A DNA stretch of 64,000 nucleotides from Octopus vulgaris (taxonomy: Eukaryota). The notes beneath the pieces were generated by a model, which was not told where the DNA came from, made no database searches, and worked only from the letters and a program-made list of their open reading frames with translations. The translations under genes and the position numbers were made by a program. This document shows, piece by piece, positions 4,756 to 37,182 of the stretch; position 1 is the stretch's first letter; each line of letters opens with the position of its first letter. The DNA is taken from NCBI GenBank assembly GCA_951406725.2, contig OX597836.1, positions 28,396,001 to 28,460,000 of the forward strand, given 5' to 3'.

Positions 4756-5175
4756 GGATCTTTTTGGTTTGAACAGCAGTTTTTAACATAATTTCCACAT
4801 AACTAAACACTTTTAAACTTCGTATACTGGTAGAATGTGTTTATAAAACATCTTTTTCTCTTGGTTTTATTGAGAAAATTCCATAGTTTGTAAGATATTT
4901 GTTGTTTTATTTTCTCCAATTTCTGCAATTTCAACCAATCACTGACGTCCATTGAGGTAAAAAAAAACATTCTGTGCCGTATGAATATGTCCCTCGTTTA
5001 AGAAACAGATTGGGTTTATTTACATTTGTGAAGAAAAAAAGATACCCTTCCCTCACCCCTAACCGTAGCCCTAAAACAGATAGAAATGCAATAGATCGAT
5101 ACTAGGGTCATAATTATGGGTGACAATTTCATATGACACCACTAGTAAAAACTGCCGTTCAAACCGAAAAGATCC
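4756..5175. mobile_element. ~420 bp MITE, Merlin-type (GG-terminal TIRs, 8 bp TSD)
   Basis: TIRs GGATCTTTTTGGTTTGAAC / GTTCAAACCGAAAAGATCC; TSD CTTTACTC/CTTTACAC; near-identical copy at 33240-33661. Confidence 0.85.
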
Positions 5176-24046: not shown

Positions 24047-26584
24047 AATCCAGGTTTAGTCACAGATCAATCAAGATAGTAATGTTTTAACAATGTGATG
24101 TATACTTGCCATCTCAATATGGCTAACCACTAAGGGTGGGTGTTACTGTGGCTTGTAGTCCCAGGAGAACATTGTCTCCAGCTGGCTTTAGACACACTTT
24201 CTGTGCCCTTAAGGTATTTGCAAAGTGAGGTCATCCTTCCCTCGTCAACCTAAGTGATACGCACGGAACAGTTTTGTGACAACATAGTGTCTCGATACAT
24301 TCTAATGAAAATGTGATAGAAAGAGATAATGCCACTCTCTCTTTGGAAGAGAAATTAATTTTGGTGTTGATAAAAAGGCAGAAAACACCGGAAGCAGTCA
24401 AGTGGAGCAGGAGACATAGCCTGCAAAATTAAGGAAAAACGTATTTAGACTTATTTATCATGAAAAAATGGCATGCCTTCACAAGTAGCCCCTACCTGAC
24501 TTTATTTTCACCCCCACCTCAATCAAGAGAAGCTGTGTGTATGTGTGAGTAAGAAAAAAATATTTCTAACAGAAAAGTATGCTATTAAAATGAATTCTCA
24601 TTTACAGCTGTAGAAACATTGCCAGATAAGACTGGAGCCTGGTGCAGCCTTCTGGCTTCCCAGATCCCCGGTCAAACCGTCTAACCCATGCTAGCATGGA
24701 GAACGGACGTTAAATGATGATGATGATGATGATGATGATGATTCATCTTTTCTGCCAGCAATGACCTTCTCAGGCTCTCCAATATTTTAAATCATAATCA
24801 GAAACAATGGGGAGCAAGGAGTGAGGTTGCCAAAAGAATTATAATTTTTCAAATTTTTTTTTTATAGCATATAAATGTATTTATGGAGAGAAAAATATTG
24901 AAAAACATCATATTTGAGAGTGAGAAAGAAATGAGGTGGGGTTGTCTTAGGATGTGCTAGAAACAACAGCCAAATCTCCCTTAAATCACTCACTTTTTCC
25001 TCTGAAAATATTAACAATTTTAAAAATATCTTTTACAAAAAAGGCTTCTCCTATGGTTTCGAAGTGCAAAAAAAAAAATAATGGCCAAAACCGGTCTGGG
25101 GGAGAATGGTGATGAAGGGGTGGAAAAAAAAAAAAGAAAATTTCGTTAAAAAGTATCCATTTTTCTGGAAGTTATGAGGCAACAAAATTGATGCTGAAAA
25201 ATGGATGTCTTTTAATGAAATTTCTGTGGTTGGGGTGTACAATGCATATTCCATCATTTTTCCATTATTCAGACAGTTGTGAGGAAAGAAAAATTGAAGG
25301 AGTCACATTGTGTAGGTATGCCCAAAAAAGTACACAGAAATACATTATAAGAATTATCGTTTACATACCGTTCAAAAATCATTGTGGATAAATTTCTGCT
25401 ATGTGTTTTAGGAAGGTCTTGTAATTCTCCCATGCTCGGTCGTACGTCATATTATAAAGGTCTCTGTACATGGCCTCGTTGACGTGTAACCATCGCATAT
25501 CTCCACTCGACGTGAATTTGTATTTCAGTCTACTCTTAATTCGGTTCCAGTAGCCCTCCACTTGATTTCCACATACACCATTCTCTGGGTCCACAGTTCC
25601 ATGTATGTATCCAAGGCTTTCTAGATTCCGGTAACTAGCCCACTGGTCTGTAAACACTATAGACCCTGGTTCTACGTTGTTGATAATGAGTGACTCCAGT
25701 GTCTCTGTCTTTCTATCTTCAACATGTTGCAGATGTCCTTTTTTCTGGGTGTTGTCGTAGAAACCAACAACCCAGTATGAATGCACCACACGCCCGGCTT
25801 CATTTTTTCTCCGAAACATTAAACTCTCATCTATTTCTACAACATGATTCGAGCCACCTAATTTTTTTTTATCTCTTAATAATTTCTGCAAACAGATTTC
25901 ACGGCAATATTCATACCACTGTATTGCTGTGACTTTACTGACATTGTTTGCTGACATGGAACTGGTTACCGGCATTTCAAAAATAAAATCGAAAATTAGA
26001 TTGAAAATTTTGTACACAGAAAGCTTACTCTTCTCCAAGAAAGTCTTGGTACGGATTGACACTGCATTCTTGCACTTGTGGCATCTCCATACCACCCCAT
26101 CTATGGCACGCTGAGAAGGCCTTATGCTCATTTCCTTTCCACAACTACATGTCTTCTGATTCGAAATGATTCCATTGTCTTTCAGATATTGTATGAAATT
26201 CTCTTCCGATAAATTTTGGGCCATTTCATATCTTGGACAATCCATCTCGAAAATCAAATTCTAAAAAAATTAGGAAAGAAAGTTCAAATAGTCAAAGAAA
26301 CAAAATCAAAGTTAAAAAATTAAGAAAAAAGTCCAAACAGTCAAAAAATTAGCAAAAAACAGTCAGAATTAGCAAAACAATTAATTACAGGCGGAAGCTG
26401 TGGAGATTGTGATAATAAAACAAATGTTTCCCTCACCACCACCAAAAATTAATTTCTCTTCCAAAGAGAGAGTGGTAATTATTTATTTCTATCACATTTT
26501 CATTAGAATGTTTTGAGACACTATGTTGTTACAAAACTGTTAAAACTTTACAAACCTGATCAACCTGTGACTAAACCTGGATCC
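24047..26584 (-). mobile_element. Merlin (IS1595/IS1016-like) DNA transposon with ~145 bp TIRs; left TIR interrupted by another repeat
   Basis: 24048-24090 plus 24268-24370 are the reverse complement of 26435-26582; right end GGATCC-type; encloses the transposase ORF. No TSD recognised. Confidence 0.8.
25379..26245 (-). CDS. Merlin/IS1595-family (ISXO2-like) DDE transposase, open ORF ~288 aa
   Basis: Zn ribbon CSC..WRCHKC; VEIDES, WVVG, TDQWASY..L and NQVEGYW motifs; first ATG at 26245 (ORF track starts at TTG 26257). Lacks the usual NHSxxFV segment. Confidence 0.88.
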   Translation of the reverse strand: MDCPRYEMAQNLSEENFIQYLKDNGIISNQKTCSCGKEMSIRPSQRAIDGVVWRCHKCKNAVSIRTKTFLEKSKLSVYKIFNLIFDFIFEMPVTSSMSANNVSKVTAIQWYEYCREICLQKLLRDKKKLGGSNHVVEIDESLMFRRKNEAGRVVHSYWVVGFYDNTQKKGHLQHVEDRKTETLESLIINNVEPGSIVFTDQWASYRNLESLGYIHGTVDPENGVCGNQVEGYWNRIKSRLKYKFTSSGDMRWLHVNEAMYRDLYNMTYDRAWENYKTFLKHIAEIYPQ

Positions 26585-31949: not shown

Positions 31950-32490
31950 AAACCGTGCAGTCTTTGAAAAGTCTTTTATCTGTGAGGAAGCACGTGTTCT
32001 GTGTGATTATGGCAGCAAGCTCCAGTGACTTCGCTTCCATTATGGGAACATTGAAAACAGAGGGTGGTCCTGGGAAGATTTTTAAAATCGATGAAACAGT
32101 CTTCTGAAGACGTAAATACAACTGAGGAAGACTCGTACTTGAGCAGTGGGTTTTCGGAGGAATGTGTCGCGAGACCAGACAGGTTATTCTGTATGCAGTG
32201 CCATGTCGGAATCGTGACACACTGGAAGAATGCATACGTTACTCGATTCTTCCAGGAATCACAATTTTCAGCGATTTGTGGGGGACGAACTCTCACATTC
32301 TTGAAATTGATAATTATAATTTTGAGAATAGAACAGTGAACGACGGCGTTGCGTTTGGTAACTCGAAAGATGGTACACACACTCACCAAGTGGGCCTCTG
32401 TGAACAGAGGTAATAAACGACGCCGTGGCACTCACCGTTCTATGGTAGGTTCATATTTCTTTGAATTTATGTGGAGGATATGAAAATTGT
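31950..32490 (+). pseudogene. Merlin/IS1595-type transposase remnant (catalytic half)
   Basis: GGPGKIFKIDETVF*RRKYN*GR..QWVFGGMCR..RNRDTL..ILPGITIFSDLW..GTHTHQV..YFFEFMWR. Confidence 0.85.
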
Positions 32491-32984
32491 AATTTATTTG
32501 AAAAATTGATTGAATGTATTTCTAACTTTCAGTTTTAACTTTGAAAATATTTCGTATTGTGTTGCTTATTGCATGCTTAAATGTTTGGCTTTTAAGCATA
32601 TTTTGTTCACTCTTAATTTCATATATAACATATAAACATGTACATCTTTTGGAACATTGTCCTTTTATAAGATTTTGCAGGCAAATTTTTTAATTAACAT
32701 AAACATTTATTTATATGAAAGAAAATCACCGGAGAACTTCCATCTAATTCTTCCAAATCTTTCTGTTAAAAATTGTAATGTGTTTATCGCATGTAACCTG
32801 TTGTTTATCGCATTTGCATTAAATGCATATTGAATGCGTAAATGTTTGCTCGTTTCTTTTTGTCATTGGGCATTGAGGTGGTTGTATTGTGTGCTAAAAA
32901 TAACAGCTAAATAAGATTTGTTGGATAAATCTTTTAAATTAATCGGTGGATTTATTTCACTAGAATTCTCATATGTTTACAAGA

Positions 32985-33215
32985 GCTAGATAGGCATCTC
33001 CAACTAGCAGGCCATGCTACTCCAGACTTATGACGAGCAAAAACTCAGAAACTAGTCTCTGGATGCAGGCTTAGCCTAGTGGTGATGCTTATCTCCCCCT
33101 TGTAAACATAAGGACACTGGAAATGTGTCAAGGCCGACAGGAAGCGTTGCTGCTTCCTAGGGCTAAGTAGCAGTAGTGTGAGTCCCTTCATTGGACTGTC
33201 ACATTAAGTTGACAG
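32985..33215 (+). ncRNA. Structured RNA-like element with a degenerate type I hammerhead ribozyme fold (33021-33063)
   Basis: TCCAGA-CTTATGA-cGAG(CAAAAA)CTCa-GAAAC-TA-GTC-TCTGGA: perfect stem I, core CUGAUGA with one substitution, palindromic ACTAGT stem III; followed by a multi-hairpin domain. Confidence 0.6.
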
Positions 33216-33239
33216 TATACAACTATTCTATCGTACCAC

Positions 33240-33661
33240 GGATCTTTTCGGTTTGAACGGCAGATTTTTAAAATAATTTCCACGTAACTAAACACTTTTA
33301 AACTTCGTATACTGGTAGAATGTGTTTATAAAACATCTTTTTCTCTTGGCTTTATTGAGAAAATTCTATAGTTTGTAAGATATTTGTTGTTTTTCTTCAA
33401 TTTCTGCAATTTCAACCAATCAATGACGTCTATTGAGATGGAAACATTTTGTGTCGTATGAAATTGTCCCTCGTTTAAGAAACAGATTGGGTTTATTTAC
33501 ATTTGTGAAGAAAAAAAGATACCCTTCCCCCGCCCCTAATCCTAACCCTAACCCTAAAATAGATTGAAATGCAATAGATCGATACTAGGGTCATAATTAT
33601 GGGTGACAATTTCATATGACACCGCTAGAAAAAAAAACTGTTGTTCAAACCGAAAAGATCC
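33240..33661. mobile_element. 422 bp MITE, Merlin-type
   Basis: Perfect 19 bp TIRs GGATCTTTTCGGTTTGAAC and perfect 8 bp TSD CGTACCAC. Confidence 0.92.
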
Positions 33662-33995
33662 CGTACCACTACTGCATATATCTCTCTGAGATATTTAGAA
33701 ATTTAATATTTCTATTAACATAGACACTTATTTACATAAAAGAAAATTAGCGGATTGTTATGCCAAATTAAAAATTTTCGGTAAACTTTAATTTTTGAAA
33801 TGCTGGCAGCCAAACCGACTAGATCCCTTGGCGGAATTAAAACTCAGAATGTAAAGCCGGAAGACATGCTGCTAAGCATTTTGTTCGACACACTAACGGT
33901 TCTGTAAGCTCACCGTCCAATTACGCTAAGCAATCCTGCAGCTTATTCACCAGAGAAAAATAATAAAAAATATAGTTATAGTTATCTCCCCTGTA

Positions 33996-34040
33996 GTTGC
34001 TTAGGAATTTATTTTCTCGATGCCACCTGCAGAGGGCGTC
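33996..34040 (+). promoter_or_regulatory. Candidate RFX X-box and CTCF-like site upstream of HYLS1
   Basis: GTTGCTTAGGAAT at 33996-34008 (X-box-like) and TGCCACCTGCAGAGGGCGTC at 34021-34040 (CTCF-core-like on both strands). Confidence 0.4.
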
Positions 34041-35369
34041 ACTAATCATAACACGAATATGGCTTCCGATGTCAGTAAGTCACGGTTGGATTTCACGGAA
34101 GAAGAAATAAGAAAGGAGCTCTTTCGGTATGGCATCAAAGATATCAACCGAAGTAGTTTACGTCAATTTCGAGAAGAACTTCGGAATTTGGTGAAAAAAA
34201 TATCCTCAAGTTCTCTTCGTAATGTTGGTAAATCCACCTCGATTTCGTCTTCTTTCAACAACGTAACTGACACTTGTTTGAAAATCTCTCCTCCAGAACC
34301 CTTTTCTAAAACTCCTCCAACTGCCAAGAACGTTGACGATAAGTCATGCCTGCCTCATACAGACGATCGTCGTCCTGCTAATTCCATGGAGCCGTCGATT
34401 GTTACCGTTTCTCACAATCGGCCCCAGAAAACAGCTGAATGTTCCAAACACGTTGCTTGCAGAAGAAGCTGTCAATTGTTCAACAGTGCCAATAAGGTGG
34501 ATGGTCACTCGGGTATGACACTCAACCATCAATACACACAAACTCAACAGCCACTGACTAATCGATCGGAAACGGAACATGAAAAGCAGGAGAATCTCCT
34601 TCAAACTTTCACCAGAAAAAACGTTCCGCAGCCAAACCAGGTAAATAGATTTGATCATCCCAAGAACAAAGAAAACGCCTGGTCTCGTCATATCGCACCT
34701 TCGTCATCTCTCTCATCGCAAGTATCGGTCCCCAAACCATCACAAATCGCCTCCAACGACACCGAAAGCAATGCCATGAAAGATTATTTACTAAAGACGT
34801 TGAACAAACCTCCACGACTAAACACTTATGTTACCAAGAGGAAGATCTCTCGCAAAGGCTCCGATGGTAAACGTTACATCGACAGAAGTGAATCTGTGTG
34901 TAGTATCAGTAGCACCAGTTGTAGTAGTGTCTGTGGCAGTTGCTGTAGCAGTATCGCTGACCCCGCTGAGTGCCAGAATCGTCTGAGAGAGATAACAAAC
35001 AGAGGCGGCCAGTTCTGTCAAAGATCCCTGAGTTCTTGTGATAACCGGTTCAGGTCATCAACTATAGTTACTCCATCACAGCCGAGGTTGAAGAAAAACA
35101 GAAAGACAGACCCCGTGAGTAGGTTCCATGAATTCCAAAGCTACTGGAAATTGCACAAGCCTCCCGGTGAAAATAATCACAACGCCCTTCGGTGGAGCAT
35201 TAAAGAGAAAATTGCCAAACACGACGTCATAGGAAGCCGTCCACGGAAAACTTTCGTGCCCAATAATTATGTGATACCCTCACAAAACCCGAGACATTCT
35301 CTTCGATGGCAGGTGCGGACTGATCTGGCTCACGGCGCGATGCCAACCACCAAATATAACGACTATTAA
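34020..35369 (+). CDS. HYLS1: HYLS1-like centriolar/ciliogenesis protein (single-exon CDS; ATG 34059 may be the real start)
   Basis: 449 aa uninterrupted ORF. C-terminal HYLS1 box KTDPVSRFHEFQSYW..PGENNHNALRWSIKE and PNNYVIPSQNPRHSLRWQVRTDLA; N-terminal FTEEEIRKEL..G....SLRQFREELRNLV helix; Ser-rich linker. Confidence 0.9.
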   Translation: MPPAEGVTNHNTNMASDVSKSRLDFTEEEIRKELFRYGIKDINRSSLRQFREELRNLVKKISSSSLRNVGKSTSISSSFNNVTDTCLKISPPEPFSKTPPTAKNVDDKSCLPHTDDRRPANSMEPSIVTVSHNRPQKTAECSKHVACRRSCQLFNSANKVDGHSGMTLNHQYTQTQQPLTNRSETEHEKQENLLQTFTRKNVPQPNQVNRFDHPKNKENAWSRHIAPSSSLSSQVSVPKPSQIASNDTESNAMKDYLLKTLNKPPRLNTYVTKRKISRKGSDGKRYIDRSESVCSISSTSCSSVCGSCCSSIADPAECQNRLREITNRGGQFCQRSLSSCDNRFRSSTIVTPSQPRLKKNRKTDPVSRFHEFQSYWKLHKPPGENNHNALRWSIKEKIAKHDVIGSRPRKTFVPNNYVIPSQNPRHSLRWQVRTDLAHGAMPTTKYNDY

Positions 35370-35709
35370 GGACGTTTTTCTCTATGTGTGTGATTTTCGT
35401 TTGAATCAGTTCATTCTTCGTATACTTAGTTTTACAGATTAAGTTGATATATATATATATATATAAATCAAGTTGTTGTACATATGTTGATTTGTTCAAA
35501 TTAAGTTGTATATATTTTGAGGTGTGTCCAAACTTTGTAAATATCTCTAAATGTAAAAACAGTTTTTCACCAGAATGAATGCATTTAATAGAAACAACAA
35601 AAATTGTACAATATACAATGTATTTATATTTCTACCACGTGTATAGTTTTTCTTTCCTGTATTTTTAAGATGAGGAATTATGTACATTATTTACAATGGG
35701 AAGATAGGT

Positions 35710-36830
35710 GTCCTGACCTTGTTTGTTATCACAACGTTTCGGCTGATGTACTCTCCAGCCTTCTTCGGGTGGAATTTCGAACCCAGCCCTTTATTTGACC
35801 AATGGGGTACACTGTTCTCATTCCTAAGATATGTTGCTTAGGAGGTTGTTGTGTCCTAGCATATGTGCAACCTCTCTTAATTTTCGTATTTTCCAGCGGT
35901 GTTCTCTGTTGATTATTTTAGCTTCATCCCACAGGGGCAGGTGGTGTCCGTTTTTCCACATCCCCTCATGTCACAGCTTTATGATGTTCCTCTACCCTTA
36001 CTTTAAAAGGGCAGCTTGTTTCACCTTTGTATAACCTACCACAGCTGCATGGCGAAACATACCGCCCCCTTAAAGTAAGGGTAGAGGAACATCATAAACC
36101 TGTGACACGAAAGGGTGTTGAAAAATCGGATGTAGCTGATCATGTATAGAAAAATGGGGACCACCTCCCGCTGTGGGATAAAGTTTAAATAATTGACAGA
36201 GAACACCCCTGGAAAATACGAAAATTAAAAGAGGCTGCACATATGCTAGAACACAATAACCTCCTAAGCAAACCTAGTGCAGATATGAATTTAATATGAG
36301 AACCAGTATTAAGAAAAGATAAAATACTAGGTTTATAAGCCCTAAAATTCACTCTATAATTATCCACAGATCCAGCCTCGTCTGGCACCTGTGTCGGTGG
36401 CACATAAAATCACCCACTACACTCTTGGAGTGGTTGGTGTTAGGAAGGGCATCCAGCTGTAGAAACACTGCCAGATCTGACTGGCCTGGTGCAGCCTTCG
36501 GGCTCCCCAGACCCCAGTTGAACCGTCCAACCCATGCTAGCATGGAAAGCGGACGTTAAACGATGATGATGATATAGTGTAGTGGATAAGAGCATGGGCT
36601 ACTAATCCTTGGATTCAAAGTTCAATCACAGGTAGGGGCTTGAAAAATAATATCAACAGAAAAATAACATCAGCAACATCCCTGAGGAATGAGAACAGTG
36701 TATCCCATTAGTCAAATAAAGGATTAGGTTCGAAATTCCACCAGAACACCTGATGGAGGCTGGAAAGTACATCAGCCGAAATGTTGTGATAACAACAAAC
36801 AAGTTGAGGACACTGATCCATCTGTTGTAA
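35710..36830. mobile_element. Penelope-like element remnant as an inverted pair (GIY-YIG fragments plus terminal repeats with hammerhead-like motifs)
   Basis: Minus 35830-36055: PCSCGRLYKGET..FKVRVEEH. Plus 36060-36320: LKVRVEEH..VADH..RKLKEA. 35715-35830 is the inverse of 36680-36805; both carry C(T/C)GANG(A/G)..GGCTG..CAGCC-GAAA. Confidence 0.8.
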
Positions 36831-37182
36831 ATAAAGTAGTTTTTCTTTCTTCAGTTAATACCTCATATAGTATTATGGCAACCTTGTGCCAAATAAAATT
36901 ATTTTGTTTTAATCCCACTTCCTCAGTTTGGGATTGGAGGTAAGCGATCTCAACCGTTTTCAACAGTGTTACAAAGTGAGGTAAAATTAACTGGTTTCGG
37001 ATGTGAATTGAACTGCTAGAAATTAACCATGCTATTCTGCTGTTCTTTATTACAACAGAGAACTATTGGGTAATTAACTTTAGCATTCAGATGATTCTGT
37101 CAAATGTAATGCATGTGCGTAGTCTGGCAAGATCTGTGTGTAAGATGATAACTCAACAGGAACTGCAAAAGTCCTTTCAGGA

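Follow-up and report, generated by a model that had tools for sequence, protein, structure and literature searches.

A nested hammerhead-bearing insertion upstream of HYLS1

Within the window, the whole 64,000-nt stretch of Octopus vulgaris DNA analysed here, lies an insertion at positions 32940–33716 on the plus strand, which BLAST against the working unit of its family identified as one arm of a 351-nt unit, interrupted by a MITE. The copy covers unit positions 331–351 followed by 1–326, that is, about 347 nt of element DNA, 4 nt short of one full turn, and is 93–94% identical to the family. Its insertion was also evident from an empty site, other copies of the older repeat that hosts it reading uninterrupted across the insertion point. 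The initial annotation had confined the element to 32985–33215 (~230 nt), boundaries that are superseded by those given here. At both junctions a 5-nt target repeat, ATTAA (32938–32942 and 33714–33718, plus strand), overlaps element bases and represents either a short duplication or microhomology. On its 3′ side, the copy reads through position 33227 (+), which corresponds to the short 3′ end of the family (E1, unit position 267), and terminates at 33715–33716 (+), where the long end of the family lies (E2, unit position 325/326).

The MITE that splits the copy (33240–33661, 422 bp) has terminal inverted repeats starting with GGATC and an 8-bp target duplication (33232–33239 and 33662–33669), and a second member of its family, also with 8-bp target duplications, was found in the window at 4756–5175. 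We infer that the MITE is Merlin/IS1595-like. An ORF for an IS1595/Merlin-type transposase, located at 25379–26260 on the minus strand, is a possible mobiliser of the GGATC MITEs, and a short telomere-like run of CCCTAA was seen within the MITE at 33535–33557. The older host repeat extends around the retrozyme copy from 32087 to 33826 (outer limits approximate), ends in a GGATC-type terminus at 33826 and holds a broken DDE-transposase-like stretch at 32087–32290; judging from an IS1595-domain ORF elsewhere in the window, it too appears to be of Merlin type.

Outside the element, the neighbouring HYLS1 coding sequence occupies 34020–35369 on the same strand (Pfam HYLS1_C, E 3e-25). Its first ATG is 304 nt downstream of the insertion and the ORF starts ~800 nt past 33215, as had been annotated. 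A single 449-aa frame without interruption encodes HYLS1, and immediately before it lie ~2 kb of transposon remnants nested in one another. Further along the window, at 35683–36838, there is an inverted pair of Penelope-type termini ~1 kb apart, unrelated to the retrozyme family, the right arm of which contains a hammerhead-like stretch near 36750–36790.

The type I hammerhead of the copy spans 33021–33063 (+) and comprises stem I (33021–33026 with 33058–33063), the core CUUAUGA (33027–33033), stem II GAG/CUC (33035–33037 with 33044–33046), GAAAC (33048–33052) and the GTC triplet (33055–33057), with a C.A at 10.1/11.1 and a predicted cleavage site after 33057. Stem III is formed by the palindrome ACUAGU (33051–33056, +), predicted to pair between two units as a double hammerhead. 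All the previously named motifs that we looked up by coordinate were present, including CTTATGA, ACTAGT and the arms of the downstream hairpins, and the reading of the motif as a type I hammerhead with a substituted G5 held, its family relatives carrying intact cores. The substitution, G5U at 33029, is private to this copy, as the corresponding genomic pattern matched once, at the locus itself. Hammerhead core mutants indicate that G5U would abolish cleavage. A hammerhead model scored the locus at 82.8 bits, a match by construction given that the locus copy is part of the model's own alignment. The curated Rfam models gave no match to the hammerhead at E ≤ 10 in the window between 31000 and 35000 nor at E ≤ 1 at four family-copy loci, and a generic hammerhead pattern matched the window twice, which is chance level.

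Folding of the 231-nt stretch annotated initially yielded −83.7 kcal/mol (z −3.70), and 0 of 200 shuffles were as good; its contrast in base composition was confirmed, with 48% GC against 27% in the 500 nt upstream. The inverted repeat, the folds and the pair probabilities all pointed to an imperfect rod of ~50 bp (32972–33110, +) that prolongs stem I, in which 32972–33026 pairs with 33058–33110; when 32961–33239 was folded, 33099–33110 paired with 32972–32983 at a probability of 0.91–1.0. A branched 3′ domain follows at 33113–33215 (+), consisting of short hairpins at 33113–33129, 33132–33164 (holding AGGAAGC/GCUUCCU) and 33196–33215. The predicted fold of the family is a stem I extended into a ~50-bp rod, then short hairpins. 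The cloverleaf drawn in the initial annotation had to be rejected as the family fold: its closing helix, CTTAGCC (33070–33076) with GGCTAAG (33161–33167), had a pairing probability of 0.00 in the fold of 32961–33239, and a perfect pair was present in 1 of 58 copies, namely the locus copy.

The criterion by which Li et al. call a retrozyme 'active' is two consecutive intact units (10.64898/2026.07.22.740005); the locus has a single unit with a G5U core. Taken as a whole, the locus is probably a decayed, twice-nested retrozyme copy that is dead.

The 351-nt family and its predicted ribozyme

A DNA search of the species' own genome (2.8 Gb) returned 2,500 candidates, and among the 40 that were scored, copies 90–93% identical were found on many contigs. 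The intact core CUGAUGA was in the majority among the 30 best copies. Exact core-pattern matches in three subfamily groups numbered 280, 236 and 129 (CUGAnGA for the 280 and the 129, CYGAUGA for the 236; reversed controls 0), and a 22-mer from the 3′ hairpin had 1,045 genomic matches (reversed control 0). From 597 word matches and a capture rate of 14/83, we estimated the family at ~3,500 segments. Copies with an intact core, which the initial annotation had proposed to look for genome-wide, are documented by the 280 exact matches; together with covarying stems and a better-than-shuffle fold, they support the earlier description of the locus as a decayed monomer of a retrozyme family. In copies sampled without regard to the ribozyme, all 12 core bases were kept in 17 of 23, and core positions were only slightly better kept than positions elsewhere (4.0% versus 5.3–8.0%).

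In many copies the upstream flank is the element's own 3′ end, which makes the unit self-closing at 351 nt; the sequence upstream of unit position 1 was never an ORF in the copies examined. This self-closing unit has a period of 350–351 nt, a GC content of 41.6% and a longest stop-free frame of 52 aa, and tandems of it were found at L056, with two intact cores 350 nt apart, and at L076, with three units. In contigs of four sequence runs, guessed to be RNA, the unit was unevenly covered, and strand, level and circles were not readable from them. An RNA dataset lookup listed none, a result weakened by the use of the whole 3.3-kb locus as the query.

The window copy belonged to a clade of ten UA rows with 100/95 support. 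A different subfamily (L105, L106, L134, L149, L161 and related loci) combines a U4C core with a U.U mismatch at stem II's base, and its median divergence of 5.3% was the lowest of the groups measured, so it spread despite its variant core. A U4C core has been described as weak in vitro yet viable in a viroid (PMC3088659). At L082 (~1100–1145, +) we came across a second, unrelated hammerhead family, with a U4C core, an 8-nt palindromic stem III and an extremely long stem I; it sits in a (TA)n tract that lies within an insertion of the 351-nt family.

In 120 parsed hammerheads, subfamilies differed by pair-preserving double changes, three of them in stem I (pair 3, AU 97/GC 16; pair 4, CG 72/UA 36; pair 6, UA 73/CG 16) and one in stem II (middle pair, AU 83/GC 36), so that the compensatory changes sought in stems I and II were indeed there. 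In a 58-row alignment whose rows were chosen by core patterns, 84 cells were changed on both sides, compared to 36±8 expected (0/500 shuffles), while the nine pairs with a double change showed no excess over shuffle (149/500). As cells count copies and not events, about four independent double changes lie behind the covariation signal. Across 20 near-full copies, a double change was seen in 17 of the 86 predicted pairs.

Stem III has 1–2 bp within one unit and is self-complementary in four states: ACUAGU, ACAUGU, ACAUGCAUGU and ACAUGCGUGU. Newt satellite 2 is an example of a metazoan hammerhead of the dimer type. A UA/AU swap in the palindrome takes two substitutions, and in a monomer these bases would form an unconstrained loop that pairs only across two units, so the preserved self-complementarity fits the dimer model of hammerhead cleavage (PMC4209133). 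Folded in isolation, none of the four palindromes yielded a predicted hairpin, leaving the idea that long forms cleave as monomers unsupported. The tree was midpoint-rooted and included ribozyme characters, and the order of the palindrome changes is not fixed by it. That core, stems and palindrome were kept through compensatory changes across subfamilies implies that the ribozyme is of importance to spreading lineages.

Insertion anatomy and mobilisation

We sampled insertions by anchoring mid-unit and not on the ribozyme, taking 90 stretches that between them included most of the first 100 listed of the 597 matches, which gave 94 distinct ends. The 3′ ends fell at two fixed positions 58 nt apart, with 44 at E1 (unit 262–272), 35 at E2 (319–332) and 15 elsewhere, and the 5′ ends of the same 94 segments were spread out. 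An abutting inverted piece was present in 36 of the 94, and 12 of the 94 were longer than one unit, reaching about three turns. The copies are mostly dispersed one- or two-armed insertions of Penelope type, and not satellite arrays. All fetched loci together contained 69 two-armed insertions; 16 had unclassifiable ends, and 49 of the 53 classifiable ones combined one E1 with one E2 end (p 3e-11). After 27 of these 49 were dropped for microsatellite flanks, target repeats in the remaining 22 had a mean length of 9.9 nt and measured at least 7 nt in 18 cases, compared to a mean of 2.3 and a maximum of 8 in shuffled pairings. A (TA)4 tract lay within 70 nt of 33 of 79 E1/E2 ends; in background windows the count was 49 of 510. 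Of the 44 short ends, 10 were followed by (CT)4; of the 35 long ends, none was. Short repeats just past the 3′ ends, (CT)n, (CTAT)n and (GTTA)n, echo the element's last bases (L047, L051, L066 and ten short-end copies); possible sources are RT stutter or a target preference.

No 3′ end of the 94 was located at the ribozyme cut, and the cut site was crossed gap-free in 52 of 54 copies, which argues that the template was covalently continuous at that point, being either a circle or an uncleaved multimer. The density of 5′ ends around the cut was not significantly raised (4 ends, 1.25 versus 0.55 per 100 nt), and so the genome holds no trace of a cleaved linear RNA in this respect. Rare variants shared by the arms or units of one insertion were few (21 in 59 pairs, with 58 in 687 control pairs), 9 of them in 15 tandem pairs, all from one locus, and 12 in 44 inverted pairs, so that they do not prove a single circular template.

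Penelope-like elements are characterised by partial tandems, inverted truncated arms, 8–10-bp duplications and a (TA)n bias, as well as by a one-ended tail of 30–40 bp (PMC8557442, PMC3846280). The 351-nt family bears this insertion signature except for the length of the extension, 58 nt versus 30–40. On the basis of the insertion anatomy, mobilisation by a Penelope-type enzyme is likely. The unit itself contains no RT or GIY-YIG ORF, and elements of Penelope type with open frames of 781 aa are present in the genome. A search for a sequence link to an autonomous partner found none among the 30 of 148 scored GIY-YIG loci that were compared (best E 0.33). Of the 30 GIY-YIG loci examined, 17 have a U3-A8 minimal hammerhead whose palindrome is likewise ACAUGU, and these hammerhead-bearing ends mostly run into (TA)n. 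A young Penelope-type family (L212, L217 and 15 more GIY-YIG loci) encodes the 781-aa frames and a CX4CX2C linker (Neptune/Nematis-like), together with the U3-A8 hammerhead and 3′ ends that mostly pass into (TA)n. We also considered whether autonomous Penelope elements share the two fixed ends, and rejected this: the closer TA run lies inside them, and just a single end was observed.

Given these findings, we are largely confident that the locus is a likely inactive, dispersed copy of a non-coding type I hammerhead family that is likely a non-autonomous retroelement, an animal non-LTR retrozyme, pasted by a Penelope-like enzyme. Under the proposed mechanism, a source of two or more units would be transcribed, and neighbouring hammerheads would pair via palindromic stem III sequences and cleave after GUC, yielding unit-length RNA that, by analogy with other retrozymes, would be closed into a rod-and-hairpin circle. 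A GIY-YIG endonuclease would then make a staggered cut of ~10 nt, often at (TA)n, and both target ends would prime reverse transcription at the two fixed internal sites, which are separated by 58 nt and remote from the ribozyme cut; the resulting cDNAs, varying randomly in length up to three turns, would be joined head to head. The locus copy stopped at the long site, having covered one turn less 4 nt, and later gained G5U and the MITE. More tentatively, and with less than even confidence, we propose that the family records how Penelope integration works: the ~10-nt cut ends would prime one RNA circle at two sites, RT stutter at the short site would seed (CT)n, and the subfamilies would constitute a natural compensatory series that reflects selection for a two-unit (dimer-only) ribozyme switch. 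In that reading, the head-to-head arms and the one-ended 'tail' would both follow from two fixed priming sites on one circle.

The same family and the same type of enzyme could also operate on an uncleaved linear multimer, with E2, where a T5 run lies at unit 325–329, as the 3′ end of the RNA and no need for circles. The absence of a clear 5′-end spike at the cut speaks for it, as does the report that 8 of 9 Xenopus dimers remained uncleaved in vitro (10.64898/2026.07.22.740005), and both multi-unit copies and read-through of the cut site are equally expected of uncleaved RNA. Against it stand the compensatory conservation of core, stems and palindrome described above and the circles formed by related units of mussel and axolotl (PMC7229834), and overall we judge this alternative rather unlikely. 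On the narrower question of the template, we favour a circle slightly over an uncleaved multimer, given that all spreading lineages conserve the ribozyme and that circles are formed by related units (PMC7229834). An improbable possibility is that the unit is nothing but a pseudo-LTR detached from an autonomous Penelope-like element, its copies being the 5′-truncated ends of that element. The insertion anatomy is identical to that of Penelope-like elements, Xenopus retrozymes resemble pseudo-LTRs (10.64898/2026.07.22.740005), and the comparison covered only 30 GIY-YIG loci; however, what precedes position 1 in the copies examined is the unit's own 3′ end, arrays reach three turns without any coding sequence, and the 30 GIY-YIG loci have no similarity to the unit.

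Two further explanations were weighed, and we assign very little probability to either. That the element is a tRNA-derived SINE, combining cloverleaf and hammerhead like Sm-alpha and moved by a LINE, was suggested by an A-box-like stretch near 33072–33082, as read from the sequence against the box consensus, and by the cloverleaf that can be drawn in this copy, but is largely refuted: ARAGORN found 0 tRNA genes in the window, the cloverleaf helix is a private and unpaired feature of this copy, and the insertions have neither a fixed 5′ end nor an A-tail and carry inverted arms with an asymmetric tail. That the copy was recruited by HYLS1 as regulatory RNA or as part of its promoter would suit its proximity to the first ATG on the same strand, but is hardly to be expected of an ordinary family member whose core is broken, which a MITE has split and which lies within a transposon remnant.

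We regard the locus as ordinary and the family as modestly important. In the literature consulted, support for the mobilisation of animal retrozymes by Penelope has consisted of co-occurrence, shared hammerheads and pseudo-LTR homology, to which the insertion scars add a quantitative and independent line. With its two mapped priming sites, the 351-nt unit lends itself as a compact substrate to in vitro assays of Penelope integration, which have been named as needed (PMC8557442), and the four palindrome states provide natural variants for tests of monomer versus dimer cleavage.

Relation to known retrozymes and Penelope-like elements

In the accessible literature we found no description of a cephalopod retrozyme family, although the supplements of PMC7229834 and 10.64898/2026.07.22.740005 may list such, nor, supplements possibly differing, of asymmetric two-armed retrozyme insertions with fixed asymmetric 3′ ends. 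The available text of the vertebrate study names no mollusc among its 35 genomes (10.64898/2026.07.22.740005), and 235 Hammerhead_1 loci have been reported from the giant squid genome (PMC6962438).

Animal non-LTR retrozymes were described by Cervera and de la Pena in 2020, with mussel units of ~350–390 bp as well as axolotl units, and a link to Penelope was proposed in the same work (PMC7229834). Like these, the octopus family has a type I hammerhead in a non-coding unit of 170–400 nt with a GC content below 50% (here 42%), is highly self-paired, makes target duplications of more than 4 bp and coexists with Penelope-like elements. It differs from them in consisting mostly of dispersed one- or two-armed insertions instead of long tandem arrays, and both its hammerhead cleavage and its circular RNA are predicted. 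By unit size, GC content, hammerhead type, tandems and duplications, the family fits among the animal non-LTR retrozymes. Vertebrate retrozymes have been interpreted as non-autonomous Penelope-like elements on the grounds of co-occurrence and pseudo-LTR homology (Li, Clavereau, Pollet, 10.64898/2026.07.22.740005). They share with the present family the dispersed monomers with some dimers and multimers, and the relationship proposed is the same, whereas our case is built on insertion anatomy, pseudo-LTR homology being absent from the 30 of 148 loci compared.

Metazoan hammerheads of the dimer type (PMC4209133) resemble that of the family in their 6-bp helix I, 1–2-bp helix III and palindromic loop cap; the family departs from them in its stem II of 3 bp plus a mismatch, its four palindrome states and its one U4C subfamily. 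With the endonuclease-positive Penelope-like elements (PMC8557442, PMC3846280), finally, it has in common 5′ truncation, partial tandems and an inverted truncated arm. In contrast to those elements, it lacks any coding capacity for RT or GIY-YIG, its extension is ~58 nt, and its hammerhead core is canonical and situated 170–230 nt from the 3′ ends.
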